The notes under the pieces were generated by a model that was given only the letters and a program-made list of their open reading frames with translations, was not told the origin of the DNA and searched no databases. A stretch of DNA of 64,000 nucleotides from assembly GCA_017507765.1 (NCBI GenBank), contig JAFWAG010000032.1, forward strand, positions 87,569-151,568, in the 5' to 3' direction. The DNA comes from Alphaproteobacteria bacterium (GTDB taxonomy: Bacteria > Pseudomonadota > Alphaproteobacteria > CACZRW01). How positions within the stretch are numbered: position 1 is the first letter of the stretch; every line of letters begins with the position of its first letter. The position numbers were made by a program, and so were the translations under genes. Of this stretch, positions 5,112 through 55,340 are shown piece after piece.

Positions 5112-5129
5112 GTATCCTCCTTCGGGAGC

Positions 5130-5837: not shown

Positions 5838-5912
5838 GCATCTATATATACTTAATTATATAGTTTACTACAAAACAGAGGTTAACAAAACACTTTTAAT
5901 GTGTATTTTTTG

Positions 5913-8646: not shown

Positions 8647-8758
8647 GTTTAAAAACTCTATTTAGTTATATTATTACCTATAATATGAAAAATCCACAAA
8701 AAAAGCACTGCCGTTAATCAAAACGGCAGCACTTAATTTTTGCAACAGTACGATGCTA

Positions 8759-9103
8759 CTATTCAGTAAGCGTATCGTTAAATCCGCCGCCGTTGTAGTT
8801 GGAAGAAATGTTCTCACCGGCGAAGTAAGTAACAATCGCACCGGCAACCGCAACTACGACCAAACCAAGGGCCAAAGCTGCGAACCACTTCCACAACGGA
8901 CGACCGAAAATGGAGGCAACCGCCAAACCGACCAAGCCGAAACCGCCCATAACGAAAACAACGGTACGGATTTCACGGAAAAGCGAGAAGCCTTTGTTAA
9001 TAACAATTCCAAAAACAGAGTTTGCTTCATCAGCAAATGCCGTAGTCGATACTAAGACCAAAAATGCAGCCATAAGACCGACTTTAAGAAACTTTGTTAA
9101 CAT
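8759..9103 (-). CDS. virB2: VirB2/TrbC-like T4SS pilin
   Basis: 114 aa with a long signal peptide (LMAAFLVLVSTTAFA) followed by two hydrophobic helices. AAGGAG RBS at 9116-9111. It is the first gene of the minus-strand operon. Confidence 0.75.
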   Translation of the reverse strand: MLTKFLKVGLMAAFLVLVSTTAFADEANSVFGIVINKGFSLFREIRTVVFVMGGFGLVGLAVASIFGRPLWKWFAALALGLVVVAVAGAIVTYFAGENISSNYNGGGFNDTLTE

Positions 9104-11586: not shown

Positions 11587-11645
11587 TTCTATGAAAAAAT
11601 ATTACAAAGCTATTTTGTCTGTCGGGCAAAAATAGCTTATAAAAA

Positions 11646-11668
11646 AGAGCAGTATTCCCGCCTGCTCT
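11646..11668 (+). terminator. Candidate hairpin after the 688-aa gene
   Basis: AGAGCAG (11646-11652) pairs with CTGCTCT (11662-11668) around a 9-nt loop. The downstream tract is only weakly T-rich, so it may be an attenuator rather than a full terminator. Confidence 0.3.
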
Positions 11669-11743
11669 CCCTTAGTTTAAGGGCTTGGGAATGGTAAAAT
11701 GTCTTGATGCTGTGCAAAAAGACGCATTTGTTCGGAGAGTCTG

Positions 11744-12523
11744 ATGATTGACTTGGAGAAACATAAAGTTTTATTCGTATCAACCTTGGCGCTTGGTTCC
11801 TTGAGTTTGTCGGCTTGTTCTTGCCTTTGGTCAGGAACAAACGGCGGTTATGATGAAACCGTTATTGTCGATGAAAATATACAGGACGGCCCTGTTTTAG
11901 CCCCTATGGAATATAAAGCTCCGGCTCAGGCTTATAATGCTCCGACAGGCGGTGGGGTTTGGGTGGAAAGAACCAACTATAATGCGCTTGCGGAAACTTA
12001 CGGTCACTCTTCGGAAGATATTGCCAGCACTATACCGGTTACCGATGAAGGAATACGCTATGTTTCCATGTATGACCAAGACTGCGAAGATGAGTTCCGG
12101 TCGGCAGGAAGCACAAAAGTTTCCGCAAACGGTGCCGGAAACACAGATGGCTATGACGGAAACGGAACATCAGCATCCGGAAACGGAATGGGTATCCAAG
12201 ACGAAAATACAATAGATTTACAAGGCGCAGAAGTCGGTGAAATTGATGCCGAACAGCCGATTGAAGACTGGATGGCTCCGGAAGGAACTTCTTTGCGCTC
12301 TCTGTTAATGGACTGGAGCGATAGAACCGGTTGGAAAGTTATTTGGAAAAGCGATCGGGAATATGTTTTGGAAGCCGGCGCAATGTTCAGAGGTCGCTAT
12401 ATGGACGTAACATCGGCTTTGGTGCGCACCTTTGCCAGAGCAAGACCTGCTCCGATAGCAACCTTCTATAAAGGTAATAAAGTGTTGGTTGTAACCACAT
12501 TGGAGGACGAGAATGCGGATTAA
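11744..12523 (+). CDS. pilL: PilL-like lipoprotein with a TcpQ-type C-terminal domain (type IVb pilus)
   Basis: 259 aa with lipobox LSLSAC. The C-terminus WMAPEGTSLRSLLMDWSDRTGWKVIWKSDREYVLEAGAMFRGRYMDVTSALVRTF matches the PilL/TcpQ domain pattern by eye. It lies directly upstream of, and overlaps by 11 nt, the secretin gene, as in R64 and PAPI-1 pil clusters. Confidence 0.6.
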   Translation: MIDLEKHKVLFVSTLALGSLSLSACSCLWSGTNGGYDETVIVDENIQDGPVLAPMEYKAPAQAYNAPTGGGVWVERTNYNALAETYGHSSEDIASTIPVTDEGIRYVSMYDQDCEDEFRSAGSTKVSANGAGNTDGYDGNGTSASGNGMGIQDENTIDLQGAEVGEIDAEQPIEDWMAPEGTSLRSLLMDWSDRTGWKVIWKSDREYVLEAGAMFRGRYMDVTSALVRTFARARPAPIATFYKGNKVLVVTTLEDENAD

Positions 12524-14144
12524 TTTTAAGCATTGTTCTTTAATCGTTGCGGGAACGGCTTTAACTTTTGTTTTGGCTTCTTGTTCTTTGGCTTCCTTGA
12601 CCCAAGAGACAGAAAACAAAATTAAAGAAACAAGCATTGTTACCGATAACGTTATGGCAAAATCTCCGATGCCGGAGACGCCTATTCCGGTTGATACGGT
12701 TAGAACCAAAGAAGAAATATGGCTTGGTAATACCAGTGCAAAAATGGCGGAAGGCGATGCTTTGCCGGCTCGCTTTGAAACCGACAACGCTGTTACCTTG
12801 GTCGGCAACCGAGAAGTTACACTGTTTGAAATTGCCGAAAGAGTTACCTCTTTAACCGGTTTACAGGTCAGAATTGACGACTTGCTTTTGGAAAGATTGG
12901 GCGGCGGCGGTTCGTCCGGCAGCGGGGATCCTGCGGCGGCTTCGACCCCGACAGAAATGGTTTCCAAAGCTACGATTTCTTATTCCGGTAAATTAAGCGG
13001 ATTGTTAGATCAGGTATCTAGCCGCTTTGCTATTTGGTGGCGTTATAAAAACGGGGTTATTACTTTCTATGAAATGGAAACCCGTATTTTTACCGTTTAT
13101 GCTCTGCCGACCAGCTCGACATTAAGCGCAGAAGTAGGAAATGACGATTCATCAGGCGAAGAAGGTTCTTCTTCAAGCGGAAGCGCAACGTCAAAGATGA
13201 CTTCCGAAGTCGAAATGCAGATGTGGGAACAAATCGAAGAAACGGTTAAAAGCTTAATTCCTTCCACTTCAAAGATGTCAATATCATCTTCCAGTGGTAC
13301 GATAACCGTAACTGCTCCGCCTGACAGCTTGCGTAAAGTTTCCCATTATATTCGGGAAATTAACGAAAAGCTTTCTCGGCAAGTTGCCATTACGGTTAAA
13401 GTTTTGCAGGTTTCTCTTAACAAAGACCATTCTTATGGACTGGATTTGAATGCGGCATTTAAATCTTTGACAGATTCCGACTTCCAGTTCACTTTGGCCG
13501 GACCGACTATTGCTCCTCCGACAGGGGCAGGAAGCATGACCGTTGGTATCTTTGGTTCAAACAATAAGTTTGGTGGTACGAATGCAATTATCAATGCATT
13601 GTCTAGCCAAGGTGATACTTCGGTAGTTACGACTGCCACCGTGACCACGATGAACAACAAAGTTGCGCCGGTGCAAATTGCCCAAAACCGTAACTATGTT
13701 TCCGGTGTGTCTTCGACTAAATACGAAGGTGATACCAATCCGACTTATTCTATTGAAACCTCTAGCTTAAATCTTGGTTTCAATATGGATATTCTGCCCA
13801 GAATATTGGATCACGGACGCCTTTTAATGCTGTTTAACATGACATTAAACACTCTGTTAGAAATGGAAGAGTTCGTAACTCAGGATAACACGGTTATGTT
13901 ACCGACAACGGAAACTCGCGGTTTTTCACAGGAAATTGTCTTAAAGTCCGGTTCAACCCTTATTCTTACCGGATTTGAACAGGCAACAACGTCTATCAAA
14001 AAAAGCGGAATTGGTTCGGCTGATAATATGTTCTTCGGCGGAAACAGAAGCTCTGAAGACGGACGGACGGTTTTGGTTATTCTGTTAACTCCGGAAGTTT
14101 TGGTTTCTCCATTGTCTCCGGAAACTCGGGTCAACGATTTGTGA
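12513..14144 (+). CDS. pilN: Secretin, PilN-like lipoprotein (type IVb pilus outer-membrane channel)
   Basis: 543 aa with lipobox FVLASC. The secretin C-domain is recognisable (VAITVKVLQVSLNKDHSYGLDLN...; ...GFSQEIVLKSGSTLILTGFEQ...RTVLVILLTPEVL). Confidence 0.85.
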   Translation: MRINFKHCSLIVAGTALTFVLASCSLASLTQETENKIKETSIVTDNVMAKSPMPETPIPVDTVRTKEEIWLGNTSAKMAEGDALPARFETDNAVTLVGNREVTLFEIAERVTSLTGLQVRIDDLLLERLGGGGSSGSGDPAAASTPTEMVSKATISYSGKLSGLLDQVSSRFAIWWRYKNGVITFYEMETRIFTVYALPTSSTLSAEVGNDDSSGEEGSSSSGSATSKMTSEVEMQMWEQIEETVKSLIPSTSKMSISSSSGTITVTAPPDSLRKVSHYIREINEKLSRQVAITVKVLQVSLNKDHSYGLDLNAAFKSLTDSDFQFTLAGPTIAPPTGAGSMTVGIFGSNNKFGGTNAIINALSSQGDTSVVTTATVTTMNNKVAPVQIAQNRNYVSGVSSTKYEGDTNPTYSIETSSLNLGFNMDILPRILDHGRLLMLFNMTLNTLLEMEEFVTQDNTVMLPTTETRGFSQEIVLKSGSTLILTGFEQATTSIKKSGIGSADNMFFGGNRSSEDGRTVLVILLTPEVLVSPLSPETRVNDL

Positions 14145-14152
14145 TGGTTTAA

Positions 14153-15499
14153 ATGGCTTTAGATGATGAAGAGTTTGCAGAAGATCCACTAGGAGTTCCA
14201 GATGCGCCGCTCGAAGACATAGGACCGGCAGAGGACGAAACCCCTTGGGGAGCAACAATGACCGTAGGAAATACGGTCTATGCCGCCAGTATATTCTGGC
14301 AGCCGTTGCAAGACCCTGACAATCCTTTGCCTGAAGTTCGGGAAACAGCGGAAAACGTCTTAGATAATTCTGATTTATATGTCGTAAGGCCTTCGGGAAT
14401 GCCTCAGTACGGTTTGGGTATTTCCAGTGAAGGACATCGTTCGGGAATGCCGGTCGCCGCTTTGGGACTGGTTGATGCTTTTTCCGATGTAGCATCTTCG
14501 GTTTCGGTATTTAAAGTTCCCGAAGGTTGGTGGTTCATCGCCGTCCGTAATGACTTAATCCTTTCGGAAGAAGATATGCTCTTCCAACGGGAGGAAGATG
14601 CCAAAAGAAATTTTATTTCCATGATGGCTGTTCCCGACTGGGGAAGAAAAGTTGCTCCGTCAGAATGGGGAATTGACGGAACCGAAGAAATGGATATTGG
14701 GGACGTTTTATCCCGTGGCGCAAAGGTAAAACTGCAAAAGCTGAAAACCGAATTCAGTCTGAAAAATATAATTTATATTGCGGCGATTGCGCTTGCCTTG
14801 ATTGGCCTTGGCTATTACATAATTTCCAATTACTTCGGCGGGGAAGAAGTTATAAAGGAAGTTATTGCTCCGCCACCAATCATTAAACAGATTATTGAAA
14901 AACCAAAAGTCAAAGTCGAAGAACCGATGCCTTGGGATTCTTTGGCGCTTTCGACGGAACTTGCCAATTCTTGTTCCGATGCCATAAAACTTTTAACCGC
15001 AAATACCGTTCCGGGCTGGAAGCTTGGAGATATAAACTGTAAAGTAAGCGGAGTGTCTACGACTTGGATGCTTGAATGGGGACGGATAGCCAATTTAAAA
15101 ACTGCTTTAAAAGTTTATGACATTAAAAATCTGCATTTTTCGGTTTCCGAAGACGGAAAAACCGCTGCGGGAACTATGCCGTTTAACAATATTAAGAAAA
15201 TACCTTCTCCTCCGACTTTGACGGCAAACGATGCCATGACGGAGCTGACAGATATTTTCCAAGCTTTAAATCTGGCGGTAACTTTAAGTATAACTAATGT
15301 CCAAACCGAACCTACCCAAAAGAACGCATTGCCTGTACATCTGTATTCGTTTGTAAGCTTTGCCTTTTCGTCAGAGCTTCCGCCGACAGATTGGGAGTCT
15401 TTCTTTAACTCGTTTGCTTCTTTGGAAATAACGGATATAATGTACAATCCTGAAAGTAATGTTTGGAGATATGAGGGGCGCATCTATGGTAAGAAATAA
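14153..15499 (+). CDS. pilO: PilO-like type IVb pilus accessory protein
   Basis: 448 aa with an acidic N-terminus and a single central TM (IIYIAAIALALIGLGYYIISNYF). Size and position (between the secretin and the PilP-like gene) match R64 PilO and PAPI-1 PilO2. The assignment rests mostly on position. Confidence 0.5.
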   Translation: MALDDEEFAEDPLGVPDAPLEDIGPAEDETPWGATMTVGNTVYAASIFWQPLQDPDNPLPEVRETAENVLDNSDLYVVRPSGMPQYGLGISSEGHRSGMPVAALGLVDAFSDVASSVSVFKVPEGWWFIAVRNDLILSEEDMLFQREEDAKRNFISMMAVPDWGRKVAPSEWGIDGTEEMDIGDVLSRGAKVKLQKLKTEFSLKNIIYIAAIALALIGLGYYIISNYFGGEEVIKEVIAPPPIIKQIIEKPKVKVEEPMPWDSLALSTELANSCSDAIKLLTANTVPGWKLGDINCKVSGVSTTWMLEWGRIANLKTALKVYDIKNLHFSVSEDGKTAAGTMPFNNIKKIPSPPTLTANDAMTELTDIFQALNLAVTLSITNVQTEPTQKNALPVHLYSFVSFAFSSELPPTDWESFFNSFASLEITDIMYNPESNVWRYEGRIYGKK

Positions 15500-16628
15500 T
15501 TACACAAAAACAGTTTTGGCTTCTTTTATATTTGCTTTTACGGGTATGCCATATGCAGCAGATGCCCAAGAAGCGGATTTTTCTGCTGATGCAATGTTTA
15601 TGGCTCAGGAAGGATTGGGAACTTTAAACGCTAACGAAGGCGATGACCTTTTCGCACTTTTGGATAAAGCTCCGACAGCTAATGCTCAAGATGCACAAAA
15701 ACCTGCTGATAAGCCGGCAACTCCGGCTCCGGCGGCAAAAGATGTAGCCATAGCAGCTCCGGCGGCAAAAGATGCGGCAGCGCCTAAGGCTCCTGAAGCA
15801 AAAGAAGTACCGCCGATGTTCCCTGATGAAGCTAAACCTGCCGCTACAGATGCTCCTAAATCTGCGGCACTGCCGGAAAAAGATGTGGCAGCTCCGGCAA
15901 CGGCGGCTCCGGCTACAGCTGCTGCAAATACGGAAACGGCAACAGCAGAAAAGACAGCAGATGCCGCCAAGAACCCGGCTTCCGGTTTTGCTGATGTTGA
16001 TATCTTCTCTGAAGAATTAAGTTTTCCGGAAGTTTCCGGAACGGCAACAGCTGCTCCGGCCGCAGCAACAAGCAAAACATCTCCTTCGGAACAGCTTTTG
16101 GGTACGGTTGATGCCGATATATTCCGAGAAATGGCCGCTATTGAACGAGAAAACGCTTTGCTTACTTTGCGGGCGAAAAGAGAAAAACTGATTTCCGAAA
16201 TCGAAAGTGCAAAAGCTCAGCAGAGAAAGAATCAGTTGGACGAACTGGAAAGACGTGAAGAAATCACCAGAAACCGTATCAATTGGGAAATTGAACAGGA
16301 AACTGCGGCATTAGAACGGGAAAAAGAAAAAGAACGGGAAAAGCTCTTGGGTCCTACCCTTCCTAACGGCGAAACGGAAGATGACATTACAATTATTTAC
16401 AAAGTGGAAGAAGTCCGTGGCGTAGATGGTTCTTTGTATGCCGTTCTTATCTATGATCAGGGAAGCAAACTGACAGTCCGAGAAGGATACGTTTTGAAAA
16501 ACGGTTATACGGTATCAAAAATTAACACTACGGTGGTGGAAGTTAAAAGAGGCGAAGAAACTGCTTTGTTAGCTTTTGCCAACAAAAACGATGTTGATTC
16601 CGGTTCATCTTCAATGGGAATAAGGTAA
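15486..16628 (+). CDS. pilP: PilP-like type IVb pilus biogenesis protein
   Basis: The track ORF starts at 15459; I prefer the ATG at 15486 (MVRNNYTKTVLASFIFAFTGMPYAADA signal). It has an Ala/Pro/Lys-rich spacer and a coiled coil. The C-terminus YKVEEVRGVDGSLYAVLIYDQGSKLTVREGYVLKNGYTVSKINTTVVEVKRG matches the PilP C-domain pattern. Confidence 0.6.
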   Translation: MVRNNYTKTVLASFIFAFTGMPYAADAQEADFSADAMFMAQEGLGTLNANEGDDLFALLDKAPTANAQDAQKPADKPATPAPAAKDVAIAAPAAKDAAAPKAPEAKEVPPMFPDEAKPAATDAPKSAALPEKDVAAPATAAPATAAANTETATAEKTADAAKNPASGFADVDIFSEELSFPEVSGTATAAPAAATSKTSPSEQLLGTVDADIFREMAAIERENALLTLRAKREKLISEIESAKAQQRKNQLDELERREEITRNRINWEIEQETAALEREKEKEREKLLGPTLPNGETEDDITIIYKVEEVRGVDGSLYAVLIYDQGSKLTVREGYVLKNGYTVSKINTTVVEVKRGEETALLAFANKNDVDSGSSSMGIR

Positions 16629-16672
16629 AATCGATAGTTTATATCCCGGTTTTCCGGGTAAGGATTATATAA

Positions 16673-18421
16673 ATGGCCGCTCCGGGAGAAGAAAACAGCA
16701 ATGTGCAACAAGGAGTGGGAGGACAAGGGATTCCTCCTGCCGGTCAGTCTGCACCTTCTGTACCTCCGGCTGCTGCACCTAATCCTGCACAAGCTGCAAC
16801 GGGAGCTGCTCTGGCTGCAAATAAACCACAAGCCCCGGCTGCGCCAAAAGATATGAGCGGTATGATGATGGAGCTGTTTTCAAACGGCGCCACCTGTGTT
16901 ACCGCCCCGAACGGCACATTCCCGATAAAAGAAGACAGCCGTACTTTATTGGCTTTGTTTTCAACCGGACGCTTTTTGGTGTCCGAAGCTCATAAGTTTG
17001 ACGGTCGTGTCCTTAGCTTTGAAGTTTTAGCCCGTAAACGACGTCTCCAAGTCGGTAAACCGGAATATGTTCCGCAATCTTATATAAACGCTATTTATGA
17101 ACGTGCGACATCGGCGGTTCAATCTACTGCTCCTTTAGGGGGAAAAGACAGCGAAGACCAAATGCAGATGCAGAAGGACTTTGTTACCGTCATATCCCGA
17201 GCCGCCGCAATTAAAGTTTCCGATATTCACGTTATCGTGGCAGATAAAACTACAATTATGTTCCGTGTAAACGGCTTGATGCAGACGGAAATAGAATACA
17301 GTAAAGACTGGGGCGAATCATTTGTTCGAGCGGCATTTGCTTCTGCGGATATTTCCGATGCCAACTATTCACAAAATGAATATCAGGCAGCCCAAAAACT
17401 GGGGGCAACGCCTTTGCGAGGCTCTAAAGGAAAGCTGATGCTTCCCAAAACCGTTCTTGGTGTTCGTTTGCAATTTAACCCAATCGCTTTCGGTAGCCGT
17501 TATCTGGTTATGCGTATCTTGTACGCTGATGAAGGAAGCGATAACAGCCTATCATCTTTGGGATACAGTCAACGTGATGAAGATATTTTTTTCCGCTTGC
17601 GCTCCATTCCGACCGGAATTGTGATTGTTTCCGGACCGACGGGAAGCGGTAAAAGTACGACGTTACAAAGAAACATGATTAAACTCTTAGAGGAGAAAAA
17701 CTACGAAGTTAACCTTTTGACCGTGGAAGATCCTCCGGAATATCCTATTCCCGGCGCACGCCAAATGCCGGTTACCAACGCAAATACCGAAGCTTTGAAA
17801 GATATGGAGTTTAACAAAGCTTTGGCCGCAACATTGCGTTCTGACCCTGATATTCTGATGATAGGTGAGGTTCGAACCTTATCGGCAGCCCAGCTGGCGT
17901 TTAAAGGTGCATTATCCGGACATAGTGTGTGGACAACTCTGCACGCTAACAGTGCGCCGGCAATTTTAATGCGCTTGCGAGATATGGGCATGGAAGCATT
18001 TAAACTGCAAGACCCCGGTATTATTAAGGGAATGATTGCTCAGCGCTTGTTCAGAAAGCTTTGCCCTCATTGCCGTGTGCCGGCTATTGAACAGCCAAAC
18101 CACCCTGCGGTTAAACGCTTGAACAAAGCTTTTGATACCTTTGGAGTAGACCAATCTTTCCTTCGGGGTCCGGGGTGCGATTTTTGCGGGCAAAAAGGCG
18201 TTAAAGGACGTGTGGCCGTGGGTGAAATTATTATGCCTGATGCTCATTTGTTGGAATTGCTGATAAATAACGAAACGAAAAATGCAATTGATTACTGGAC
18301 CAGTGAACTTGACGGGCGCACATTAAAAGAAAACGCTTTGGAAAAAATGCTGCTTGGGGAAATCGATATCGAAGAAATCGAAAGATGGTGTGGACTTTTA
18401 GATGAAAAAGCCGTTTACTAA
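16673..18421 (+). CDS. pilQ: GspE/PilB-family assembly ATPase (R64 PilQ-like)
   Basis: 582 aa with Walker A SGPTGSGKSTT, Asp box LLTVEDPPEY, Walker B PDILMIGEVR, His box GHSVWTTLHAN, and a tetracysteine motif CPHC...CDFC. About 60 aa of Pro/Ala/Gln-rich N-terminal extension. Confidence 0.9.
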   Translation: MAAPGEENSNVQQGVGGQGIPPAGQSAPSVPPAAAPNPAQAATGAALAANKPQAPAAPKDMSGMMMELFSNGATCVTAPNGTFPIKEDSRTLLALFSTGRFLVSEAHKFDGRVLSFEVLARKRRLQVGKPEYVPQSYINAIYERATSAVQSTAPLGGKDSEDQMQMQKDFVTVISRAAAIKVSDIHVIVADKTTIMFRVNGLMQTEIEYSKDWGESFVRAAFASADISDANYSQNEYQAAQKLGATPLRGSKGKLMLPKTVLGVRLQFNPIAFGSRYLVMRILYADEGSDNSLSSLGYSQRDEDIFFRLRSIPTGIVIVSGPTGSGKSTTLQRNMIKLLEEKNYEVNLLTVEDPPEYPIPGARQMPVTNANTEALKDMEFNKALAATLRSDPDILMIGEVRTLSAAQLAFKGALSGHSVWTTLHANSAPAILMRLRDMGMEAFKLQDPGIIKGMIAQRLFRKLCPHCRVPAIEQPNHPAVKRLNKAFDTFGVDQSFLRGPGCDFCGQKGVKGRVAVGEIIMPDAHLLELLINNETKNAIDYWTSELDGRTLKENALEKMLLGEIDIEEIERWCGLLDEKAVY

Positions 18422-18449
18422 ATAAATCTGCGATTGAATTGAATAGGAA

Positions 18450-19637
18450 TTGGCAATGAAAAGACGATTAAAACAACAACCGCAAAATTATAACCGCTTT
18501 ACAGAAGGCGGAGATGAAGATGATGCTCCGGTAGCAAGAAAACCTTCAACGATAAGTAATATGAGCCTTCTTGACCGTCTGTCAGAAGGATATGCAAGAA
18601 TAATGTGCCGTATGAGCGGTGAATCTCGTCTAAGAGTATATCGCAAGCTTATGTCTTTGTTGAAAAACCGATTTTCATTGATGGACTCTTTGGATCGAGT
18701 CTTTGACATTATTTCCAATAACGGTAAAAACCCAGGTGAGCCTATGGCAATGGCTATTTCAGCATGGTCAAGATCGCTGAGAAACGGTGACCCGTTCTCC
18801 GTTGCAATTAAAGGCTGGGCGCCAAGCCGAGAAGCTTTGATGCTTTCCACCGGTGACGTTTCCCATTTGGACGAAGCCTTGGAAAACTTGATTAAAGTTA
18901 CCGAAGGTTCGGCAAAAATGATTGCTCCGATGGTAAACGCAACTATGTATCCGGCGTTCTTGTCAATCATGGTGGTTATGATTATTTACGGTGTCGGTGC
19001 ATTCTTGGTTCCGCCTATGGCTGAAGCTGCTCCAGGATTAAGATGGACGGGTATGGCAAGCGACTTGGTTGTTTTCTCTACCTTCGTGCAAGAAAATTGG
19101 GTGTTTATATTCTCTATACCTCCAGTCGCATTTTTCGTTATCTGGTTCACCTTGCCAAGATGGAAAGGAAAAAGTAGAGCTTGGTTCGACCGTATGCCGC
19201 CATGGTCATTGTATCGAATCTTTGTCGGCGTAAGCTGGCTGTTAACTTTTTCGGCTTTGGTAAAAGCAGGTACTCCGGTTTCTAAAGCTATGCGAGCTTT
19301 AAGAGCTGATGCCAATCCTTATCTGTTGGAACGTATTGACCGCTCTTTGGTGTATATCAATAACGGTGATAATATCGGTGATGCTTTGTTAAAAACCGGA
19401 TATGACTTCCCTGACCCTGAAATCGTCGGTGACTTACGAATCTATTCAGAATTGGATAACTTCCAAGAAGCATTGAATAAAATGGCGAATGAATGGTTGG
19501 AAGAAAGCGTAAAGCAAATTGAACAAAAAGCGGCAATCTTAAATACGGTTGCAATCTTGTCCGTGGTTGCCATAGTCGGTTGGGCCGTTATGGGAACTTT
19601 CGAAATGCAAGATCAAATATCAAGAGCTATTGCTTAA
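18450..19637 (+). CDS. pilR: GspF/PilC-family inner-membrane platform protein (R64 PilR-like)
   Basis: 395 aa with about 3 TM segments in a typical T2SS-F arrangement. It lies directly after the ATPase gene. TTG at 18450 and ATG at 18456 are both possible starts. Confidence 0.75.
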   Translation: MAMKRRLKQQPQNYNRFTEGGDEDDAPVARKPSTISNMSLLDRLSEGYARIMCRMSGESRLRVYRKLMSLLKNRFSLMDSLDRVFDIISNNGKNPGEPMAMAISAWSRSLRNGDPFSVAIKGWAPSREALMLSTGDVSHLDEALENLIKVTEGSAKMIAPMVNATMYPAFLSIMVVMIIYGVGAFLVPPMAEAAPGLRWTGMASDLVVFSTFVQENWVFIFSIPPVAFFVIWFTLPRWKGKSRAWFDRMPPWSLYRIFVGVSWLLTFSALVKAGTPVSKAMRALRADANPYLLERIDRSLVYINNGDNIGDALLKTGYDFPDPEIVGDLRIYSELDNFQEALNKMANEWLEESVKQIEQKAAILNTVAILSVVAIVGWAVMGTFEMQDQISRAIA

Positions 19638-36295: not shown

Positions 36296-36952
36296 ATGAG
36301 ATTCTTTATAAATACTATCGATATTGAAGAAATAACGACTTTAAACCGTACCGGTATGTTGGACGGTATCAATACCAATCCTTCTATTTTAGCAAAAAGC
36401 AAAACTCCGATAAAAGAAGTCTTAAAAGAAATCAGCAAAATCGTAATGGGGCCTATAGCCGTGGAAGTAACGGCTCCGGACTTTCAAGGTATGATGAAAG
36501 AAGCCGATGCTTTGCGCAAAATAAGCCGAAATATTTTGGTTAAAGTTCCTCTTTCCATGGACGGCTTGCGAGTCTGTAAAACTTTGTCTTCGGACGGAAC
36601 GTTGGTTGCCGTAACTTTATGCTTTGACTGCACCCAAGCAATCTTGGCGGCTAAAGCTGGAGCTAAGTATGTATGCCCGTTTATCGGACGGTTGGAAGAA
36701 CAAGGCGGTAGCGGCTTGGAACTGTTAAAAAATATTGCCGATATTTATAATCAGTACGCTGAATTCGATACTCAGATTATGGCAGCTTCCGTGCATTCCA
36801 AAAAGCATATTGTCGAAATTGCCAGACAAGGAGCAAATGCCGTTACCTTGGCTCCGGATTTGCTGCTGAACCTTTATGAAAATCCTTTAACGGCTCAGGG
36901 TATTGAATCCTTTAAAGCCGATTGGGAAAAAACCGGACAGTCTTTGTTGTGA
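36296..36952 (+). CDS. tal: Transaldolase, short (Fsa/TalC-type) form
   Basis: 218 aa with MRFFINTIDIEEI...GINTNPSILAK and a Schiff-base Lys region (ILVKVP). Confidence 0.85.
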   Translation: MRFFINTIDIEEITTLNRTGMLDGINTNPSILAKSKTPIKEVLKEISKIVMGPIAVEVTAPDFQGMMKEADALRKISRNILVKVPLSMDGLRVCKTLSSDGTLVAVTLCFDCTQAILAAKAGAKYVCPFIGRLEEQGGSGLELLKNIADIYNQYAEFDTQIMAASVHSKKHIVEIARQGANAVTLAPDLLLNLYENPLTAQGIESFKADWEKTGQSLL

Positions 36953-37911
36953 GCGAGTCTTTAACCCCAAGTATACATTATGTCTCGGACAAACGCTTGC
37001 GCGAGATTATTGAAGCTTGGCTGATTGCATTGAAATCAGAACGAAGAATGTCCCCAAAGACCGTCTCTTCCTATGGCTATGATTTGGCTTCTTTTCTGAC
37101 TTTTTTAAATGAGCACACCGAAAAAGTTCCGACTTTGCCTATGTTGTTAGGTTTGACCGTCAAAGACTTCCGAGCTTTTTTAAGTGCGCAAAACCGAAAG
37201 CAAATGCAACATTCTTCTATGGCAAGAAAAATGTCCTGCTTGCGTAATTTTTTCCGGTGGCTTGCCAAAAATGATTACGGGAAAAATGCGGCTATCCGTG
37301 CCGTACATTCCCCAAAATCCGCCCGCAGTATTCCTAAGCCTTTGGACGAAACAGATGCTTTGAAAACCATTCAAACCGCAAATGAGCTTTATGATACGCC
37401 ATGGCTTGGGTTGCGGGATACGGCACTGTTTGCCCTTTTGTATGGGTCGGGACTGCGGCTTGGGGAAGCTTTGGCGATGAATATCAAAGATATACCAACC
37501 GGCGATACAATGATGATAACCGGCAAAGGAAATAAACAAAGAGTCGTACCGGTTCTGCCCTTTGTAAAAGACCTTTTGCAAAATTATCTGGACGCTTATC
37601 CGGGGGATAAAAATCCGGAAGCACCTTTGTTTATCGGCAAAGGGAAAAAACGCTTAAATCCGGGAGTCGTGCAACGCCAGATAAGGCGGCTGAGGATACT
37701 TTTAAATCTGCCGGAAACGGCGACGCCTCATGCTTTGCGGCATAGCTTTGCCACGCATCTTTTATCTGCGGGAGGAGACTTGCGGACAATTCAAGAATTA
37801 CTGGGACATTCTTCTTTATCGACAACCCAGCGATATACCGAAGTTGATTCCGAAAAATTGGGTAAGATTTATAATGCCGCCCACCCGCGGGCAAAAAGAA
37901 AGCCCTTATAA
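36922..37911 (+). CDS. Tyrosine recombinase, XerC/XerD family
   Basis: The C-terminus HALRHSFATHLLSAGGDLRTIQELLGHSSLSTTQRYT carries the R-H-R-Y catalytic pattern. An alternative GTG start at 36949 would overlap the tal stop by 4 nt. Confidence 0.85.
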   Translation: MGKNRTVFVVSESLTPSIHYVSDKRLREIIEAWLIALKSERRMSPKTVSSYGYDLASFLTFLNEHTEKVPTLPMLLGLTVKDFRAFLSAQNRKQMQHSSMARKMSCLRNFFRWLAKNDYGKNAAIRAVHSPKSARSIPKPLDETDALKTIQTANELYDTPWLGLRDTALFALLYGSGLRLGEALAMNIKDIPTGDTMMITGKGNKQRVVPVLPFVKDLLQNYLDAYPGDKNPEAPLFIGKGKKRLNPGVVQRQIRRLRILLNLPETATPHALRHSFATHLLSAGGDLRTIQELLGHSSLSTTQRYTEVDSEKLGKIYNAAHPRAKRKPL

Positions 37912-46982: not shown

Positions 46983-48815
46983 ATGATGAAAAACTCTTTT
47001 TACCGTAAATATTTTGCGGCTTGGATTTTTATGTTCTGGGCTTTTTTGGTGCTTTGTTCGCCGGTAAAGGCAATGGAGGAAAGCTCTTTAAACCCAATTA
47101 CCGATACATATAAAATCCTGTCGCCCGAAGATGTTAAAAATTACCGGCAAATATATAATCTGCAGGAAAAAGAACGCTGGGCAGAAGCAGATAAAGTTAT
47201 TAAACGCATCGATAACAAAATCTTGATGGGCTATGTTTTAAAACAGCGTTACCTTACCTCCGCCACTTGGAAAACAAAGAAAAAAGAAGCCGAAAATTGG
47301 CTGAAGAATTATGCTGACCACCCTTTTGCCGGAAAAATGTATGATTTGGGAAAGAAAAAAGGCGCACAGTATAATTTTAAACGACCGAAAGATATTGATA
47401 ATATTCCTGCCGGTTCATGCAGTTCTTATGTGGCGGCAAATCCTACGGATATTATTAACAACCGCTCCTTTAATCATTTAAGCAAAGAAAAAGCGGCGGC
47501 GGCAAGAAAGCTGATGAAAAGAATCCATATTGCCATAAACCGAGGAAAAACTCTGATTGCTTTTAATTACATAAACAGTAAAGAGGCAAAACAATTATTC
47601 CGTCCCAGAGATATTGATGCGGCAAAAATCGCTTTGGCTTTTCTTTATTTTACCGATTTAAGAGATGATAAAGCTTTGGAGCTTATCGAACCGGCGGCGG
47701 CTCGTTCCGGACATTTGTATCCGATAGCCAACTGGGTGGCAGGATTGGTTTATTGGCGGGTGGAAGAATATGAAAATGCCCGTAAGAGTTTTGAAGCGGC
47801 GGCTTTGAACTCTAAATCAAAGCCGGCTTTGCGGTCGGCGAGTGCTTATTGGGCGGCACGGGCAAATACCAAATTAGGCAACAATTATGAAGCAAGAGAG
47901 TTTTTAACCTTAGCCTCTGCTTCTCCACGTTATTTTTATGGGATTTTGGCTCGCCGTTCTTTGGGTGAAGACATTGAACATTCTTGGATAAAGCCGGAAG
48001 ACAGCGGAGCCGATGAAGAACAATTGCTTGCCAAACCGGCAGTGAAAAGAGCTTTGGCTTTGTTTCAGCTGGGAATGGATAAACAGGCCGAAGACGAGTT
48101 CTTAAACTTCTATGTAAAAACCAATGAAACCAACCGCCGAGGATTACTGGATTTTGCCGAAGATAATGATTTGACCGATTTATCATCAGCTATGGTAAGC
48201 ATCACCGGACAAGTTGAAAGCTCGGAAAAAGCGAATAAAAAAGGTGCTTATCCTGCGCCGAACTGGAAGCCTACCAACGGTTGGAAAGTCGAAAAAGCGT
48301 TGGCGTATTCCTTTGTCCGCCAAGAATCTTGTTTTAACAATAAAGCGATGAGCTCTGCCGGTGCCAGAGGCTTGATGCAGCTTATGCCTGCTACGGCTAA
48401 AGAAACCGCTCGTTCATTAGGTCTGGAATGGAGCCAGAAAAAACTTTTTGAACCGGCGTATAACTTGGAACTTGGTCAGTCATATATTTTAAAACTTGCC
48501 CAAGACCGCTTTATTAACCGTAACCTTATCTTCCTTGCCGTGGCTTATAACTCCGGTCCCGGAAATCTTTATAAATGGTCACGCCGCATGGATTATAAAG
48601 AAGACCCGCTGTTGTTCATGGAAAGCATTCCTTCAAAAGAAACCAGAACTTTCGTGGAAAGAATCCTTGGCAACTATTGGATTTATTCCAGCCTGTTCGC
48701 TTCGGGTGGTATTGATAGTCTGGATCAGATTATTGACGGGGAATGGCCGATTTATTCTCCGAGCAGCGAATTCAGCGTCTTCTTAATTAAAAACAGGAAA
48801 ATCGCCGCTCAATAA
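46983..48815 (+). CDS. slt: Soluble lytic murein transglycosylase (Slt70-like)
   Basis: 610 aa with a signal peptide, a long helical N-domain, and the C-terminal SLT motif FVRQESCFNNKAMSSAGARGLMQLMPATA...AYNSGPGN. Confidence 0.85.
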   Translation: MMKNSFYRKYFAAWIFMFWAFLVLCSPVKAMEESSLNPITDTYKILSPEDVKNYRQIYNLQEKERWAEADKVIKRIDNKILMGYVLKQRYLTSATWKTKKKEAENWLKNYADHPFAGKMYDLGKKKGAQYNFKRPKDIDNIPAGSCSSYVAANPTDIINNRSFNHLSKEKAAAARKLMKRIHIAINRGKTLIAFNYINSKEAKQLFRPRDIDAAKIALAFLYFTDLRDDKALELIEPAAARSGHLYPIANWVAGLVYWRVEEYENARKSFEAAALNSKSKPALRSASAYWAARANTKLGNNYEAREFLTLASASPRYFYGILARRSLGEDIEHSWIKPEDSGADEEQLLAKPAVKRALALFQLGMDKQAEDEFLNFYVKTNETNRRGLLDFAEDNDLTDLSSAMVSITGQVESSEKANKKGAYPAPNWKPTNGWKVEKALAYSFVRQESCFNNKAMSSAGARGLMQLMPATAKETARSLGLEWSQKKLFEPAYNLELGQSYILKLAQDRFINRNLIFLAVAYNSGPGNLYKWSRRMDYKEDPLLFMESIPSKETRTFVERILGNYWIYSSLFASGGIDSLDQIIDGEWPIYSPSSEFSVFLIKNRKIAAQ

Positions 48816-48833: not shown

Positions 48834-50651
48834 TTAGGAAACGATTTTTGCGGCTTTCTGACCGCATAATCCATAGCTAACACCTCCTCCAAGCCAGTTG
48901 CGGTGATCTGCCCAGTCGCGAATAGTACAGCCGGCTTTGGTGTTGCCAAGCCAAACGACTATCCCAAAACCAGAGTTTTCTCCGCAACCGTTTGAAGTCC
49001 AATACCAGTTAGTTGGACTGAAAGGGTTGGTTCCGGTATTCCATAAGCCATCGGCTTGTAACTGGGTGGTTGTTTTTACTTCCATGCCAATGCCAGAACA
49101 GAATGTTTGCGCATCCCAATACTTCATGTATCTTGTAGAACGTACCCACCCTTTACCATTAAAATCTTTGCATTCTCCGTCCGTGATAGTACCAAGTGCG
49201 GCACATTTTACATAGCAAGAGCAACATTGACGGTTACCACCGGACGAAGCGCTTATAGAGTTTACCTTGCCATAACCCGAAGAATAGTTATTCAGGACTT
49301 TGGTACAGTCGGTGTTATAGCCTCTAACATACCCATAACGGCAGGCTATGTTACTGCTCATCGCGTTGCTTGTCGTTGCCGTGTTACATTGACTGACGGT
49401 TTCTGATGCAGTTGCTACTCTGCTTCCCACAAAATAGCAAGGCTGGCTTCCCGAACTGCTTGAAGTTGTAATCTGATACCACCCTGAAGCTGCCGAAGTA
49501 TTACTGGCAATAATTCTTTCACAACTGCGATTGATATTGTTATTCCAGCCATAACGGCACTGCACGCTGCTTCCTCCGGCACTGTTGCATTGCGAAATGA
49601 CTTCGGCATTCGTAGCAACACGACTGCCGACAAATACGCACGGCGTTGAAGTAGCTCCGGATGAGGTTGTGATGTTATACCAACCCGTTGCGGCAGAAGT
49701 ATGGCTGGCGATAACTCCGGCGCAGCTTCGGTTAATATTATTGTTCCAACCATAACGGCAAGAAATACTGGAACTATCAGCATTGCATTGGGCGATAATA
49801 TTTGCATTAGACGTAACAACGCCGTTGGTAAATACACAAGGCTGATTGTAAAGAAATGAGGTCTCCGAAGTAGCCAAGGTATAATATCCGGTTTGAGCAA
49901 CTCCTTCGTTTTCTTTATAGGTTGCAGCGATTGCCGCACAAGAAGTGTTGGTGCCTTTTTGGAAGGCTTTTTTACAGGCTTTGTTATCTCCGTTGTTGCA
50001 GTTGATTATGGTTTCTATGGCTTCGTAAGAAGTGTCTGCCCAATCGGCAATGCACTTTCCTTGTAAGCATATTTCATCAACAGATAATTTACTGAAAGAA
50101 CTGCTTTCTAAAACTTCTTTTAACTGTTCTTCGTTAAGGCCGGAGGAAATATCTTTGTCATAAGCAGTGGTTACGACCGGAACTCCCGTCGGCAAAGACG
50201 TAAATCCGTAGCTTGAGACATTTTCTGCCCAAATGCCATTTATTCCCCATGCTTTAGAGGTATCTTGGGCGGAATAGATGCCCGCCGATACGCCAAGCAA
50301 AGAAGCAATCTTGGCGGCTTGGATATCATTGCCTCCGCCGCTTGAAGCTATCATCGCACTGACTTTGCCGGAAGAATCTTTCCGGATACCTATTTGATAA
50401 CCGGATATGTCAATGCCGATATCAGCAGGTTCAATAACTATGGTGCCGACAGATAAAACTTCTTTATTAGCTTCGATGTATTCTCCGGCAGCATTCTTAA
50501 GCAAAAGCAGAGTGTTTGCTTTGTTGATATTTTCTATGTCTTCGCGGCGTTCCGCAACGTGCTTATAAAGTATCGGGGTTAAGGCAGCTATCAACCCTAA
50601 CATAACAATCGCTTCAACGGTAATACTGCCTTTATACTGAGTACGGTTCAT
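48834..50651 (-). CDS. Large type IV pilin-like protein (candidate PilV-like tip adhesin) with Cys-containing repeats and a lectin-like C-terminus
   Basis: 605 aa. The class III leader is MNRTQYKG|SITVEAIVMLGLIAALTPIL, with Gly at -1 and Glu at +5. GGGAG RBS at 50663-50659. Internal repeats span aa 218-480. The C-terminal roughly 100 aa (GWVRSTRYMKYWDAQTFCSGIGM...NWYWTSNGC...VVWLGN...GLCG) look C-type-lectin/DUF1566-like by eye. Confidence 0.75.
   Translation of the reverse strand: MNRTQYKGSITVEAIVMLGLIAALTPILYKHVAERREDIENINKANTLLLLKNAAGEYIEANKEVLSVGTIVIEPADIGIDISGYQIGIRKDSSGKVSAMIASSGGGNDIQAAKIASLLGVSAGIYSAQDTSKAWGINGIWAENVSSYGFTSLPTGVPVVTTAYDKDISSGLNEEQLKEVLESSSFSKLSVDEICLQGKCIADWADTSYEAIETIINCNNGDNKACKKAFQKGTNTSCAAIAATYKENEGVAQTGYYTLATSETSFLYNQPCVFTNGVVTSNANIIAQCNADSSSISCRYGWNNNINRSCAGVIASHTSAATGWYNITTSSGATSTPCVFVGSRVATNAEVISQCNSAGGSSVQCRYGWNNNINRSCERIIASNTSAASGWYQITTSSSSGSQPCYFVGSRVATASETVSQCNTATTSNAMSSNIACRYGYVRGYNTDCTKVLNNYSSGYGKVNSISASSGGNRQCCSCYVKCAALGTITDGECKDFNGKGWVRSTRYMKYWDAQTFCSGIGMEVKTTTQLQADGLWNTGTNPFSPTNWYWTSNGCGENSGFGIVVWLGNTKAGCTIRDWADHRNWLGGGVSYGLCGQKAAKIVS
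49212..50000 (-). repeat. In-frame tandem protein repeats (about 4 units of roughly 60-70 aa) inside the large pilin-like gene
   Basis: The two best units are CRYGWNNNINRSCAGVIASHTSAATGWYNITTSSGATSTPCVFVGSRVATNAEVISQCN and CRYGWNNNINRSCERIIASNTSAASGWYQITTSSSSGSQPCYFVGSRVATASETVSQCN, flanked by degenerate units (CKKAFQKGTNTSCAAIAATYKEN...GYYTLATS...PCVF; CRYGYVRGYNTDCTKVLNNYSS...). The two best units are visibly diverged at the DNA level. Confidence 0.8.
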
Positions 50652-50693
50652 GTGTTTTCTCCCAAGTAAAAAACAAGGCTCTGCACCTCACTG

Positions 50694-50894: not shown

Positions 50895-52013
50895 TTAGGG
50901 TTCGACCGCAACAAAGGCCGTGTAAATCATCTCTATAGCTTCCTGAGTATTCGGACCTAAGGCAGAGATGTCGGCAATGAAATCAGAGAATGCGGGTATT
51001 TCTGACGGCGAACCATTAGCAAGACGATAAGAAGCAACTTCTTTTTCGTCCCATACATCTTTGATATCAGCATAATTCAAAATGCTGCCCGCACCGATTA
51101 AGATGATTTTCTTTACTTCTATCGGTCGATGCTCTGCTGGTAAAACATCGTCTAAGACCGAAGAGAAAAGACGAGCGGCACGATTGAGTTTATATACCGG
51201 AGATTCTTCGTACTTGGTTTCGCTGAACCATAACGGTTCATCATTATCAAAGCCAGATTCATCGGCAATCCATTCATTGCCAACCGGCTCTAAGTTAATC
51301 AGGTAAACTACGCCTTTTGCCAAGACGGCAAAATCAATTGCATCTTTGCCGATTTTCAAGTCTTGAAGCAAACGAACGCCATGTTTTTCCGTAATCTGTA
51401 AAACTTCATACTTAACATCAATACGGCTGACATATTTCGGTTCGGCCAAAGTTTCCGGTGTATCGGAAATAATCCGAGGTAGCGGCTCCAACCTCTCCTC
51501 CCGCTTGGGAAGAACAGGCTCTACCTCCGGAGCAGGAGGCGCAACCGGAGTTTCTACGGTTTCCTTGGCAATGTTCTTTAAATCTGATTTAGCGTGCAAG
51601 GGAGAACGTCCGGACATATTCTTGCCGGTATTTTTCTTTGCCAAAAGTTCTTTTGCCATTACCGAAGGTTCAGGAAATGCGTCCAATGCCAAACGGCGTT
51701 TAACTCTGGCTCTTTCTTTAAAATAGCCCCAAGGCTTTTGCCAGATTTTGCTCCATTTAAGACGGATAACCCAAAACCAAGACAATAAGTAAACCGGCAA
51801 AACCGCAAAGGCAAAAATAAAGAAAGCCAACTCGCCCAAAGAATCTATGACCCAACCGCCTTGCCATTGGGAAGACAGATAGCTCCAATCATCAGGGCTA
51901 TAAAAATCAAAGTTCCAAAAATAAAGGAAAAAGATTTTGACGGCACTAAAGTAAATCAATACCCAAAGTATGCTTAAAAATATAAAGCGAAACAATTTAA
52001 GGGCAAAACTCAC
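50895..52013 (-). CDS. Membrane-anchored protein with a possible degenerate NERD-like C-terminal domain
   Basis: 372 aa with 3-4 N-terminal TMs and a Pro-rich linker (PVAPPAPEVEPVLP). The C-terminus GVRLLQDLKIGKDAIDFAVLAKGVVYLINLEPVGNEW...SPVYKLNRAARLF...IILIG resembles the NERD layout. The lysine of the E-x-K motif is not evident. Confidence 0.35.
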   Translation of the reverse strand: MSFALKLFRFIFLSILWVLIYFSAVKIFFLYFWNFDFYSPDDWSYLSSQWQGGWVIDSLGELAFFIFAFAVLPVYLLSWFWVIRLKWSKIWQKPWGYFKERARVKRRLALDAFPEPSVMAKELLAKKNTGKNMSGRSPLHAKSDLKNIAKETVETPVAPPAPEVEPVLPKREERLEPLPRIISDTPETLAEPKYVSRIDVKYEVLQITEKHGVRLLQDLKIGKDAIDFAVLAKGVVYLINLEPVGNEWIADESGFDNDEPLWFSETKYEESPVYKLNRAARLFSSVLDDVLPAEHRPIEVKKIILIGAGSILNYADIKDVWDEKEVASYRLANGSPSEIPAFSDFIADISALGPNTQEAIEMIYTAFVAVEP

Positions 52014-54638: not shown

Positions 54639-55340
54639 TTATTTTTTTTCACCTTTTTTCAAAAGCGAGTCCAAATGAGAAAACAATTTGGCTCCGCCGG
54701 CACCGAATTCAACCTGCTCCATTCCTGCCGGAGAAACAACGACAACCGTAGGCGTTCCGTGGATAGAATACTTTGTTGAATCAGCGTCTCTTTTCGCCAA
54801 TAACGCTTTTAAAAGAGCCTTGTTTTCCATACACTCTTTTGCTTTGTCCGCAGACAGTCCGCCAAGAGAAGCATAAGAGGTCAAAATGTTTCCGTAATTC
54901 GGCGATAAAGCCCACTTTCCTTGGGTGGAAAAAACGGTATCAACAAACTGCCAATAAGACTTTTCCGGCATACAATGCGCTATCATAGATGCGGCAGCTG
55001 CTCTGACTTCCAGCGGGAAATCCGAAAAATAAAGCGCAATCTTGCCACTGTCGGCATAACGTTTTTTAAGTTCGGGGAAAATCTTTTCATGAAATACAGC
55101 GCAGTGCGAACAGGTAAAAGAAGAAAAGACATATACGGAAACCGGAGCTTCGGCATTGCCGACATATCTTTCTTTGATAAGACCTTGAATCTCCGGAGAG
55201 TTAACTTTTTCCGGTTCGGCGGCAATTGCTTCGCCTGCACCAATCTGCAATTGGTTGTCTTTAATGTCTTTGACTAGCCATGCGCCGAATAAAACAACCG
55301 CCAGACAAACAGAAGCAATAACACCTATAACCAATTTCAT
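54639..55340 (-). CDS. DsbA-family thiol:disulfide oxidoreductase
   Basis: 233 aa with an N-terminal anchor or signal and a thioredoxin-fold CxxC motif (FTCSHCAVFH). Confidence 0.8.
   Translation of the reverse strand: MKLVIGVIASVCLAVVLFGAWLVKDIKDNQLQIGAGEAIAAEPEKVNSPEIQGLIKERYVGNAEAPVSVYVFSSFTCSHCAVFHEKIFPELKKRYADSGKIALYFSDFPLEVRAAAASMIAHCMPEKSYWQFVDTVFSTQGKWALSPNYGNILTSYASLGGLSADKAKECMENKALLKALLAKRDADSTKYSIHGTPTVVVVSPAGMEQVEFGAGGAKLFSHLDSLLKKGEKK

Follow-up and report, generated by a model that had tools for sequence, protein, structure and literature searches.

A modular prepilin-like protein with a C-terminal lectin fold, one of a family of candidate type IVb pilus adhesins in an uncultured alphaproteobacterium

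The 605-residue protein and its N-terminal module

A 64,000-nt stretch of DNA from an uncultured alphaproteobacterium (the whole of which we call the window; positions 87,569 to 151,568 of the forward strand of contig JAFWAG010000032.1, assembly GCA_017507765.1) carries on its reverse strand a coding sequence for a protein of 605 amino acids (aa), at 48834..50651, with an ATG start and the stop codon included. The product is exactly that of MBR7158724.1 (IKD08_03465), an entry from an uncultured 'Alphaproteobacteria bacterium' metagenome-assembled genome (MAG), and a Shine-Dalgarno sequence, GGGAG, can be read directly 8 nt 5' of the ATG (50659..50663, reverse strand). A first-pass annotation, made from the sequence, described the protein as an orphan and a candidate tip adhesin of a distant pilus. 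We find it to be one member of a lineage-specific modular type-IV-pilin-like family, whose paralogous variants are most likely swappable adhesins for the type IVb pilus of an uncultured gut alphaproteobacterium. Searches of Pfam and NCBIfam with the whole protein, which has 26 cysteines, returned nothing significant.

The protein begins with MNRTQYKG followed by SITVEAIVMLGLIAALTPILYKHV. Residues 1-8 (50628..50651; like every part of the gene described below, on the reverse strand) form a putative class III, or prepilin-type, leader, which is short and basic and ends at a glycine, G8, at position -1, just before a serine, with a glutamate, E13, at +5; cleavage would fall after G8. G8 and E13 are invariant across 31 aligned family members, as are T25, P26 and Y29, and of the first 194 proteins retrieved, 144 have an intact N-terminus, every one of them with G-x4-E. 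The residue at +1 is small throughout those 144 (Ser in 106, Gly in 22, Thr in 11 and Ala in 5) and never Phe or Met. The segment SITVEAIVMLGLIAALTPILY is hydrophobic and lies after Glu(+5), in the place of α-1N, within a single helix predicted for residues 4-62.

The remainder of the conserved N-terminal pilin-like module (aa 9-215; 50007..50627) is laid out as a hydrophobic and amphipathic α-1 as far as aa 62, a β-sheet head to about aa 161 and a linker helix, with an invariant pair of cysteines, C195 and C200. AlphaFold2 (AF2), given the family alignment, places a β-sheet of seven strands after the helix of residues 4-62, with a predicted local distance difference test score (pLDDT) of ∼88-93 over residues 11-160, and the domain is modelled as a lollipop like that of type IV pilins. 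The invariant G8 and E13 and this modelled shape agree with the prepilin-like N-terminus proposed in the first-pass annotation. It had also been proposed that the leader matches that of the PilS-like pilin encoded elsewhere in the window. The resemblance holds for the register of G(-1) and E(+5), which hhalign aligns over 21 columns, but does not extend beyond it (E = 0.054; leaders of 8 residues in the 605-aa protein and 14 in the PilS-type pilin). A profile of the N-domain gave no match to PDB sequences.

Canonical N_methyl prepilins of other bacteria (P0145, P0150, P0170 and P0101, with N-termini such as KKGFTLMEML... and KAFSLVEAI...) bear the same Cys modules that follow the N-module here, and after these have either Pfam Lcl_C (2e-24) or the same Gly-rich C-terminus as many members of the family. 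Thus the N-module of the family occupies the architectural position of a prepilin N-terminus. In 23 of the retrieved proteins (P0014-P0083) the annotated sequence begins at an internal Met, MLGLIA..., a miscalled start that cuts off the leader and G-x4-E. The DNA upstream of one such start (L001:9905-10090) reads ...SGSITVEVIIMLG and contains no ATG, making a non-ATG start likely. A practical point is that this truncated start is the annotated one for about one in eight of the family's proteins in public data, which thereby lose the diagnostic leader.

Cys modules and C-terminal domain

The N-module is followed by tandem Cys modules, of which the first-pass annotation counted about four at aa 218-480. 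The Cys-framed repeats are there, but they amount to three full modules and a degenerate, partial fourth, with a spacing of C-x11-C-x27-C-x16-C. M1 covers aa 226-297 (49761..49976), M2 aa 298-364 (49560..49760; AF2 pLDDT >89), M3 aa 365-436 (49344..49559) and M4 aa 437-482 (49206..49343), the last with a CC-x-C linker and recognisable by comparison with M3 (z = 6.8). In an AF2 model of aa 290-605, each Cys module is folded as two short helices, a β-hairpin and a helix. The NCBIfam model GGGWT_bact (NF040941) matches M3 weakly, at aa 376-405, with a score of 27.7 bits against a cut-off of 30; positions 1-30 of the 46 in the profile are covered, and the GGGW motif is absent. When a profile of the Cys modules was compared with PDB, only matches at E≥1 were obtained, to N-terminal segments of angiopoietin and intelectin. 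The apparent likeness of the modules to the N-terminal segment of fibrinogen-related domains stays below thresholds and may be taken as a lead only.

M2 and M3 are 69% identical as protein (z = 32 against shuffles) and only 66% identical as DNA, and no DNA-level repeat was found in the module region by Tandem Repeats Finder. Judged by their sequences, the tandem modules are old duplications. Strains were also alike in copy number: within the window protein's 90% cluster, each full-length allele is 605 aa long, and the other family clusters differ in length by a few residues at most. Since the modules are old and their copy number is constant, they are not the variability device that the first-pass annotation had taken them to be.

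The C-terminal domain (aa 483-598, followed by an 8-aa tail; 48837..49205) is rich in Trp and Cys and had been suspected of a lectin-like fold, a suspicion with which structure prediction and Foldseek comparison agree. The model of aa 290-605 has a mean pLDDT of 92, and for its last ∼115 residues the best Foldseek match is the C-terminal fibre tip of Bd2740 (8oks; probability 1.0, target-normalised TM-score (TMt) 0.66). Next come, in order, flavocetin, the LYVE-1 Link domain, CD94/NKG2A, MBP-C, Ly49 and DC-SIGN, and nearly all of the top 50 matches (1c3a among them) are C-type-lectin-like domains (CTLDs) or Link domains. A profile of the domain, compared with PDB sequences, gives weak matches, every one of which is a CTLD or Link protein. 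From these comparisons and the family alignment, the domain is confidently predicted to have the CTLD fold. In Pfam, neither Lectin_C (PF00059) nor Lcl_C/DUF1566 (PF07603) matches the window protein or any of 16 family CTLDs, and hhalign of the CTLD against the Lcl_C domain of P0145 found no match (probability 0.3%); the Lectin_C, DUF1566 and PilV searches that the first-pass annotation recommended all came back empty. The Bd2740 tip has a Ca-independent, trimeric C-type-lectin fold and acts in prey recognition (PMC10769870).

The family and its sources of variety

Searching 5.8 billion proteins with a cut-off of E≤1e-38, we retrieved 67 close homologues, all from uncultured Alphaproteobacteria. 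Thirteen bear locus tags of the window's own MAG, and three more members from the same MAG, including the exact window protein, came from cluster listings, giving at least 16 paralogues in this genome. The protein is therefore not an orphan. Scanned exhaustively with HMMER, 1.84 billion cluster representatives yielded 264 proteins at E≤1e-3, more than 100 of them 900-1300 aa long and having only the first ∼65-170 residues in common with the query. A scan of GTDB genomes with family patterns added little in taxonomic breadth, finding one species only, with 7 loci.

Segment-wise BLAST of the 67 homologues shows residues 1 to ∼205 to be kept in 66 of them at 55-75% identity, the Cys region in 52 and the C-terminal domain in 13. 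By a census with hidden Markov models (HMMs), each protein has 0-5 Cys modules, 13 have a CTLD in one or two copies and 36 have a Gly-rich C-terminus; a Pfam scan of 65 family members gave no match except one ALK_LTK_GRD and one Xlink. Module content also differs between species, as at the orthologous dcd-murA...Elm1 locus, where P0007 has two CTLDs and P0010 has one. On this evidence the family keeps its first ∼205 residues and exchanges the remainder, which consists of 0-5 Cys modules and then one or two lectin-fold domains, a Gly-rich domain or something else.

Some further observations concern the family at large. The Gly-rich ends (36 of 67; P0020-P0066, L001:19508-21541) take the form ...AGGGGG...GYxGG..., and one of them weakly matches ALK_LTK_GRD (1.9e-4); the same domain also terminates the canonical N_methyl prepilin P0101. 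In a distant branch of larger proteins (893-1307 aa; L017:9073-13924, L018:8841-12682) the gene is preceded by a conserved gene of 300-380 aa, which ends 17-22 nt before it and whose product has an N-terminal transmembrane segment and no Pfam match; the 1307-aa example, at L017, is from a Hadza human-gut sample. In the window, a gap of 243 nt upstream of the 605-aa gene separates it from a gene (50895-52013, reverse strand) whose 372-aa product has hydrophobic segments at its N-terminus and is unmatched in Pfam; we compared this gene with that conserved partner gene and found it to be unrelated. A gene of 639/655 aa beside a distant type IVb pilus cluster (L013) was likewise considered as a family member and rejected, as it encodes a Sec-signal, EGF-like/β-helix protein.

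The main source of variety in the family is the paralogue repertoire and, for one paralogue, also a diversity-generating retroelement (DGR). The DGR lies on the metagenomic contig ENA ERZ27317164 k141_637825 (L019), which belongs to the species population of the window. L019 comes from the same sample as a 318-kb contig bearing at least three paralogues and an orthologue of the 605-aa protein with two substitutions, and it carries a gene at least 90% identical to IKD08_01420. Between L019:9370 and 13655, a complete DGR stands beside a family paralogue. The locus comprises the target paralogue P0002 (675 aa; L019:9370-11397) with its variable region at 11300-11393, bAvd (11573-11962), a template repeat between avd and the reverse transcriptase (12146-12248), and the RVT_1 reverse transcriptase itself (12315-13655).

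The variable region, which forms the last ∼94 nt of P0002, is identical to the template at 80 of 94 positions, has 13 of its 14 mismatches at template adenines and contains a 9-nt deletion; a hairpin (CTGTGGGGAT...ATCCCCACAG) lies 3' of the stop codon. It falls in the CTLD of P0002, which is homologous to that of the window protein. The template repeat encodes GWLVNLGTSNTNWNNRNNNWNGNNNNYALCGPA, and comparing this translation with the family CTLD consensus, GWxVxLGTxxxxxxxRx..YALCGPK, shows that the variable family columns coincide with AAC codons. In a second metagenome (L020:2851-4918) the DGR-target paralogue is identical over ∼1.9 kb, and the contig ends in the variable region, where its sequence is that of the template repeat; the assembly was probably interrupted here by a hypervariable or repeated site.

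Within the window, tblastn found no second paralogue of the 605-aa gene and no segment paralogous to its C-terminal part, and hence no shufflon. The sole integrase-family gene of the window (36922-37911) lies 11 kb from the 605-aa gene.

Pilus cluster, prepilin peptidase and secretion system

The window has a type IVb (T4b) pilus cluster on the forward strand (11744..20323), encoding a TcpQ-like protein, a secretin, PilO2 (PAP_PilO), an unassigned open reading frame (ORF), a T2SSE ATPase, a T2SSF platform protein and a PilS/bundlin-type major pilin (19766-20323), the nearest solved relatives of which are BfpA, CofA and TcpA. No prepilin peptidase and no large minor pilin is encoded in this cluster, and the peptidase is absent from the whole window. 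T4b systems normally include a large minor pilin (PMC5207764, PMC6048534). The window's single PilS-type gene is followed by a PALP (TrpB-like) gene, and the related L012, at 84%, has two tandem PilS-type genes and no PALP (15483-16653). The pilus cluster is headed by a 688-aa Pro/Ala/Lys-rich ORF (9520-11586, forward strand), which has no Pfam match and counterparts of 638 aa in L012 and 367 aa in L013; it may be a PilL-like component.

Back-to-back with the pilus cluster are the genes of a VirB-type type IV secretion system (T4SS; 1715-9103, reverse strand), in an order that recurs in the syntenic L012. They include VirB4/CagE (5913-8387), a small VirB3-like ORF (8332-8646) and a TrbC/VirB2-like ORF (8759-9103), all on the reverse strand; the four ORFs at 1715-5837 gave no Pfam match.

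A motif scan of DNA from related loci located a gene for an A24 prepilin peptidase in L010 (Pfam Peptidase_A24, 63.5 bits), 157 nt upstream of a family member and on the same strand. L019 and L020 carry a homologue 61% identical to it, again with a family member after it. In all four related genomes the peptidase gene comes after the gene for the T4SS coupling protein (VirD4/TraG), either directly or, as is usual, past a PAP2 phosphatase gene (L010:83-2844, L019:5047-8702, L021:5793-8729 and L022:5030-8702), and it is the only A24 peptidase gene found in each. The position of the peptidase gene beside the coupling-protein gene suggests a functional coupling of the T4SS with the T4b pilus. Together, the N_methyl prepilins that bear the same modules and the gene order around the A24 peptidase are two independent lines that strengthen the prepilin reading. 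The first-pass annotation's pairing of the protein with a T4b pilus of the same genome has thereby gained ground, in that the cluster is present and lacks its own large minor pilin, and the peptidase gene of some relatives has a family member directly after it.

The surroundings of the 605-aa gene are as first described: it lies 28.5 kb from the PilS-type pilin gene (which ends at 20323), it is convergent with an SLT-domain gene (46983-48815) that is 18 nt from its stop codon, and a thioredoxin/DsbA-like gene stands at 54639-55340. Other neighbours are Mpl/LD-carboxypeptidase and ATP synthase genes. The functional link that had been drawn to Slt or DsbA does not extend to the other paralogues, which sit in unrelated housekeeping contexts; because the paralogues are scattered single genes, it is incidental that the window copy has Slt and DsbA genes nearby.

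Discussion

On balance, we think it somewhat more likely than not that the 605-aa protein is a modular minor pilin or tip adhesin of a T4b pilus, processed by a prepilin peptidase. Modular and tip-located minor pilins are a known route to binding specificity in type IV pili. To our knowledge, the systems known so far have one or a few such minor pilins, encoded inside the pilus operon.

From the sequence, the models and the gene order in MAG fragments, we infer the following course of events. The leader of 8 residues would be cut after G8 by the A24 prepilin peptidase of the genome, and the mature protein would then be drawn from the inner membrane by the T4b machinery encoded 28 kb away. Its incorporation into the filament would be as a low-abundance minor pilin, most probably at the tip, since the shaft cannot accommodate the ∼440 aa of C-terminal modules. 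There, the Cys modules may act as a stalk, while the lectin-fold domain may recognise a glycan or protein ligand at the surface of another cell or of a host. At least 16 paralogues with different tips would constitute a repertoire of specificities, one of which would be further diversified by the DGR. Given the physical linkage of the pilus genes to those of a VirB-type T4SS, the likely role would be to capture a partner or host cell for T4SS-mediated transfer, as PilV does in IncI thin pili.

A more ambitious form of this proposal is that a single T4SS-coupled T4b pilus draws on a library of at least 16 dispersed, interchangeable minor pilins, which have in common a new N-module and differ in their tips, and one of which is hypermutated by a DGR. 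Such an arrangement would be an analogue of the IncI PilV shufflon, reached through family expansion and a retroelement, and the window gene would be a fixed member of the library, possibly a retired DGR target with a decayed end at the initiation of mutagenic homing (IMH) site. We put this form forward tentatively, and would sooner expect some part of it to fail than the whole to hold.

Several findings weigh against a T4b minor pilin. The N_methyl (PF07963 / TIGR02532), PilV/Shufflon_N and PilS models are all unmatched by the protein, N_methyl even at E≤10, and distant family members likewise have no N_methyl match. Foldseek of the N-domain or of its head returns no canonical pilin structure. 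The sole confident match of the N-domain, to 3eoi, is weak by its other measures (probability 0.99, E = 0.016, TMt 0.60, query-normalised TM-score (TMq) 0.38); the entry, from structural genomics, bears the name 'putative PilM', and a literature search for it gave nothing relevant, although its origin in an R64-type T4b pilus system of E. coli speaks for the pilin reading. The EPN/QPD and WND motifs for Ca2+ and sugar binding are absent from aa 483-605 by direct reading, and 'lectin' must hence be understood as a fold only and not as an activity. The gene and its paralogues lie outside the pil operon, mostly as single, dispersed genes in housekeeping contexts, and of the four related genomes examined, only two have a family member after the peptidase gene. 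We know of no precedent for at least 16 minor pilins serving one pilus. Finally, since the genomes are MAGs, another type IV filament system could be the true partner.

There are, accordingly, alternative explanations to consider. The protein might be a prepilin-type substrate of some other filament system (T2SS-like, Tad-like or unrecognised), or of a short pseudopilus that displays it on the cell surface. Such a partner would fit with the family genes never lying within the T4b pilus cluster, with a leader and α-1 that have only a motif in common with those of the PilS-type pilin, with the conserved upstream partner gene that the distant branch has to itself and with the incompleteness of MAGs. 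We nevertheless consider it unlikely, given that in ∼350 kb of related sequence the T4b pilus cluster and the single A24 peptidase are the only type IV filament genes seen, that the window's cluster is without the large minor pilin that T4b systems normally need (PMC5207764), and that the peptidase gene adjoins a family member. A little less likely again is an uncleaved signal anchor, which would make the protein a bitopic inner-membrane protein with periplasmic Cys modules and CTLD (binding cell-wall glycan, for example) and no part in a pilus. The missing pilin HMM and Foldseek matches are what one would expect of such a protein, and it is encoded among genes for envelope and housekeeping functions (Slt, Mpl/LD-carboxypeptidase and ATP synthase). 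However, a plain anchor does not account for an invariant Gly(-1) and a charged Glu five residues into the hydrophobic segment in more than 140 diverged proteins, nor the presence of the same C-terminal modules on canonical N_methyl prepilins in other lineages, nor the gene-order link with a prepilin peptidase. The neighbourhoods of the paralogues differ, so that adjacency to Slt is incidental, and one paralogue is targeted by a DGR; proteins so targeted are typically exposed at the surface and bind ligands.

A separate question is whether the window gene itself encodes a protein under active DGR variation, its CTLD being hypermutated in trans by the retroelement beside P0002. Its CTLD is homologous to the one bearing the variable region in P0002, the variable columns of the family fall at template AAC codons and a DGR is present in the same species population. 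The detail of the sequence largely refutes the idea, which we regard as very improbable. Against the L019 template, the last 132 nt of the window gene are identical at 52 of 102 positions and have 32 mismatches at non-adenines, where the true variable region has 13 of its 14 at adenines. The protein ends in YGLCGQKAAKIVS, with YGLCGQ and the 8-aa tail replacing the IMH-like end, YALCGP, of the family's YALCGPK, and the 18 nt that separate the gene from the convergent Slt gene leave no room for a downstream hairpin. The alleles are nearly invariant, four full-length ones differing at 0-7 scattered residues, of which one is in the segment equivalent to the variable region, and neither a reverse transcriptase nor a template repeat was found within the window.

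If the T4b minor pilin interpretation is correct, the family would add an undescribed pilin-type N-terminal family, unmatched in Pfam and NCBIfam although public data contain more than 260 cluster representatives of it, and a repertoire of adhesins per genome far above that of any known type IV pilus. It would also link a type-IV-pilin-like scaffold to both DGR diversification and a VirB-type T4SS, and would provide a means to test how uncultured alphaproteobacteria of the gut select their partner or host cells.

Comparison with known systems

Large, tip-located T4b minor pilins and PilV adhesins provide the precedent for the proposed function (PMC6048534, PMC5207764, PMC9045228, PMC5430464). 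CofB, TcpB and LngB are single large minor pilins that are located at the tip and initiate assembly (PMC6048534, PMC5207764), and like them the family has a pilin-like N-terminal domain followed by β-rich C-terminal domains. Unlike the family, CofB and TcpB are encoded as a single copy in the pilus operon and carry C-terminal domains that bear no relation to the Cys modules and CTLD; Foldseek returned no structural match. A large minor pilin of a T4b system would be expected in the pilus operon, beside the major pilin or the peptidase; the window gene lies beside neither, and a P0002-type paralogue alone follows the peptidase gene. The combination of a pilin module with a displayed adhesive module (vWA, lectin-like) is also found in PilB and PilC of Streptococcus sanguinis (PMC8179133, PMC9934059), which differ in belonging to a monoderm T4a-like system, in being single genes in the pil locus and in the modules that they carry.

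For the CTLD tip, a parallel is provided by the mosaic adhesive trimer (MAT) fibres of Bdellovibrio, such as Bd2740; these make up a large family of paralogues in which the base is conserved and the tips, which recognise other cells, have diversified (PMC10769870). MAT fibres are, in contrast to the family, trimeric coiled-coil/β-helix structures without a prepilin N-terminus, and there is no sequence similarity between the two (12% identity). Lcl_C/DUF1566 and Lectin_C domains share the CTLD fold, and Lcl_C has the same C-terminal position on pilin-like proteins (P0145 consists of N_methyl, Cys modules and Lcl_C), but the family CTLDs match neither model in Pfam, and the EPN/WND motifs are missing. 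With its variable region, template, bAvd and reverse transcriptase, the L019 paralogue is like the DGR-diversified CTLD proteins Mtd of Bordetella phage, TvpA of Treponema and the type V pilus tip adhesins of Bacteroides. Type V pili are known to have tip adhesins diversified by DGRs (bioRxiv 10.1101/2024.11.15.621889), and the DUF1566 proteins targeted by DGRs are reported to include 'putative pilin structures' (PMC6642488). Here, the window copy has no DGR signature, and the scaffold is type IV prepilin-like rather than a type V pilin or phage fibre.

The PilV proteins of IncI and PAPI-1 conjugative thin pili, which select recipient cells (PMC9045228, PMC5297154, PMC5430464), differ from the family in several respects. 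The family has no PilV/Shufflon_N sequence match and no shufflon or Rci recombinase; its alternatives are at least 16 separate, dispersed chromosomal genes, with a DGR on one of them, and the window copy lies outside the pil operon. There are also points of likeness. PilV (IncI1/IncI2 R64, TP114; PAPI-1) is, as we propose for the family, a large minor pilin with a conserved N-terminal pilin part and alternative receptor-binding C-termini, in a T4b pilus whose genes are coupled to those of a T4SS. Its gene follows the peptidase gene (pilU-pilV in IncI plasmids, A24 peptidase and family member in L010 and L019), and a dedicated diversification device is attached (PMC5430464, PMC9045228, PMC5297154). 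With the T4b pilus genes back-to-back with those of a T4SS and the peptidase gene beside that of the coupling protein, the closest functional analogue would thus be PilV of IncI and PAPI-1.

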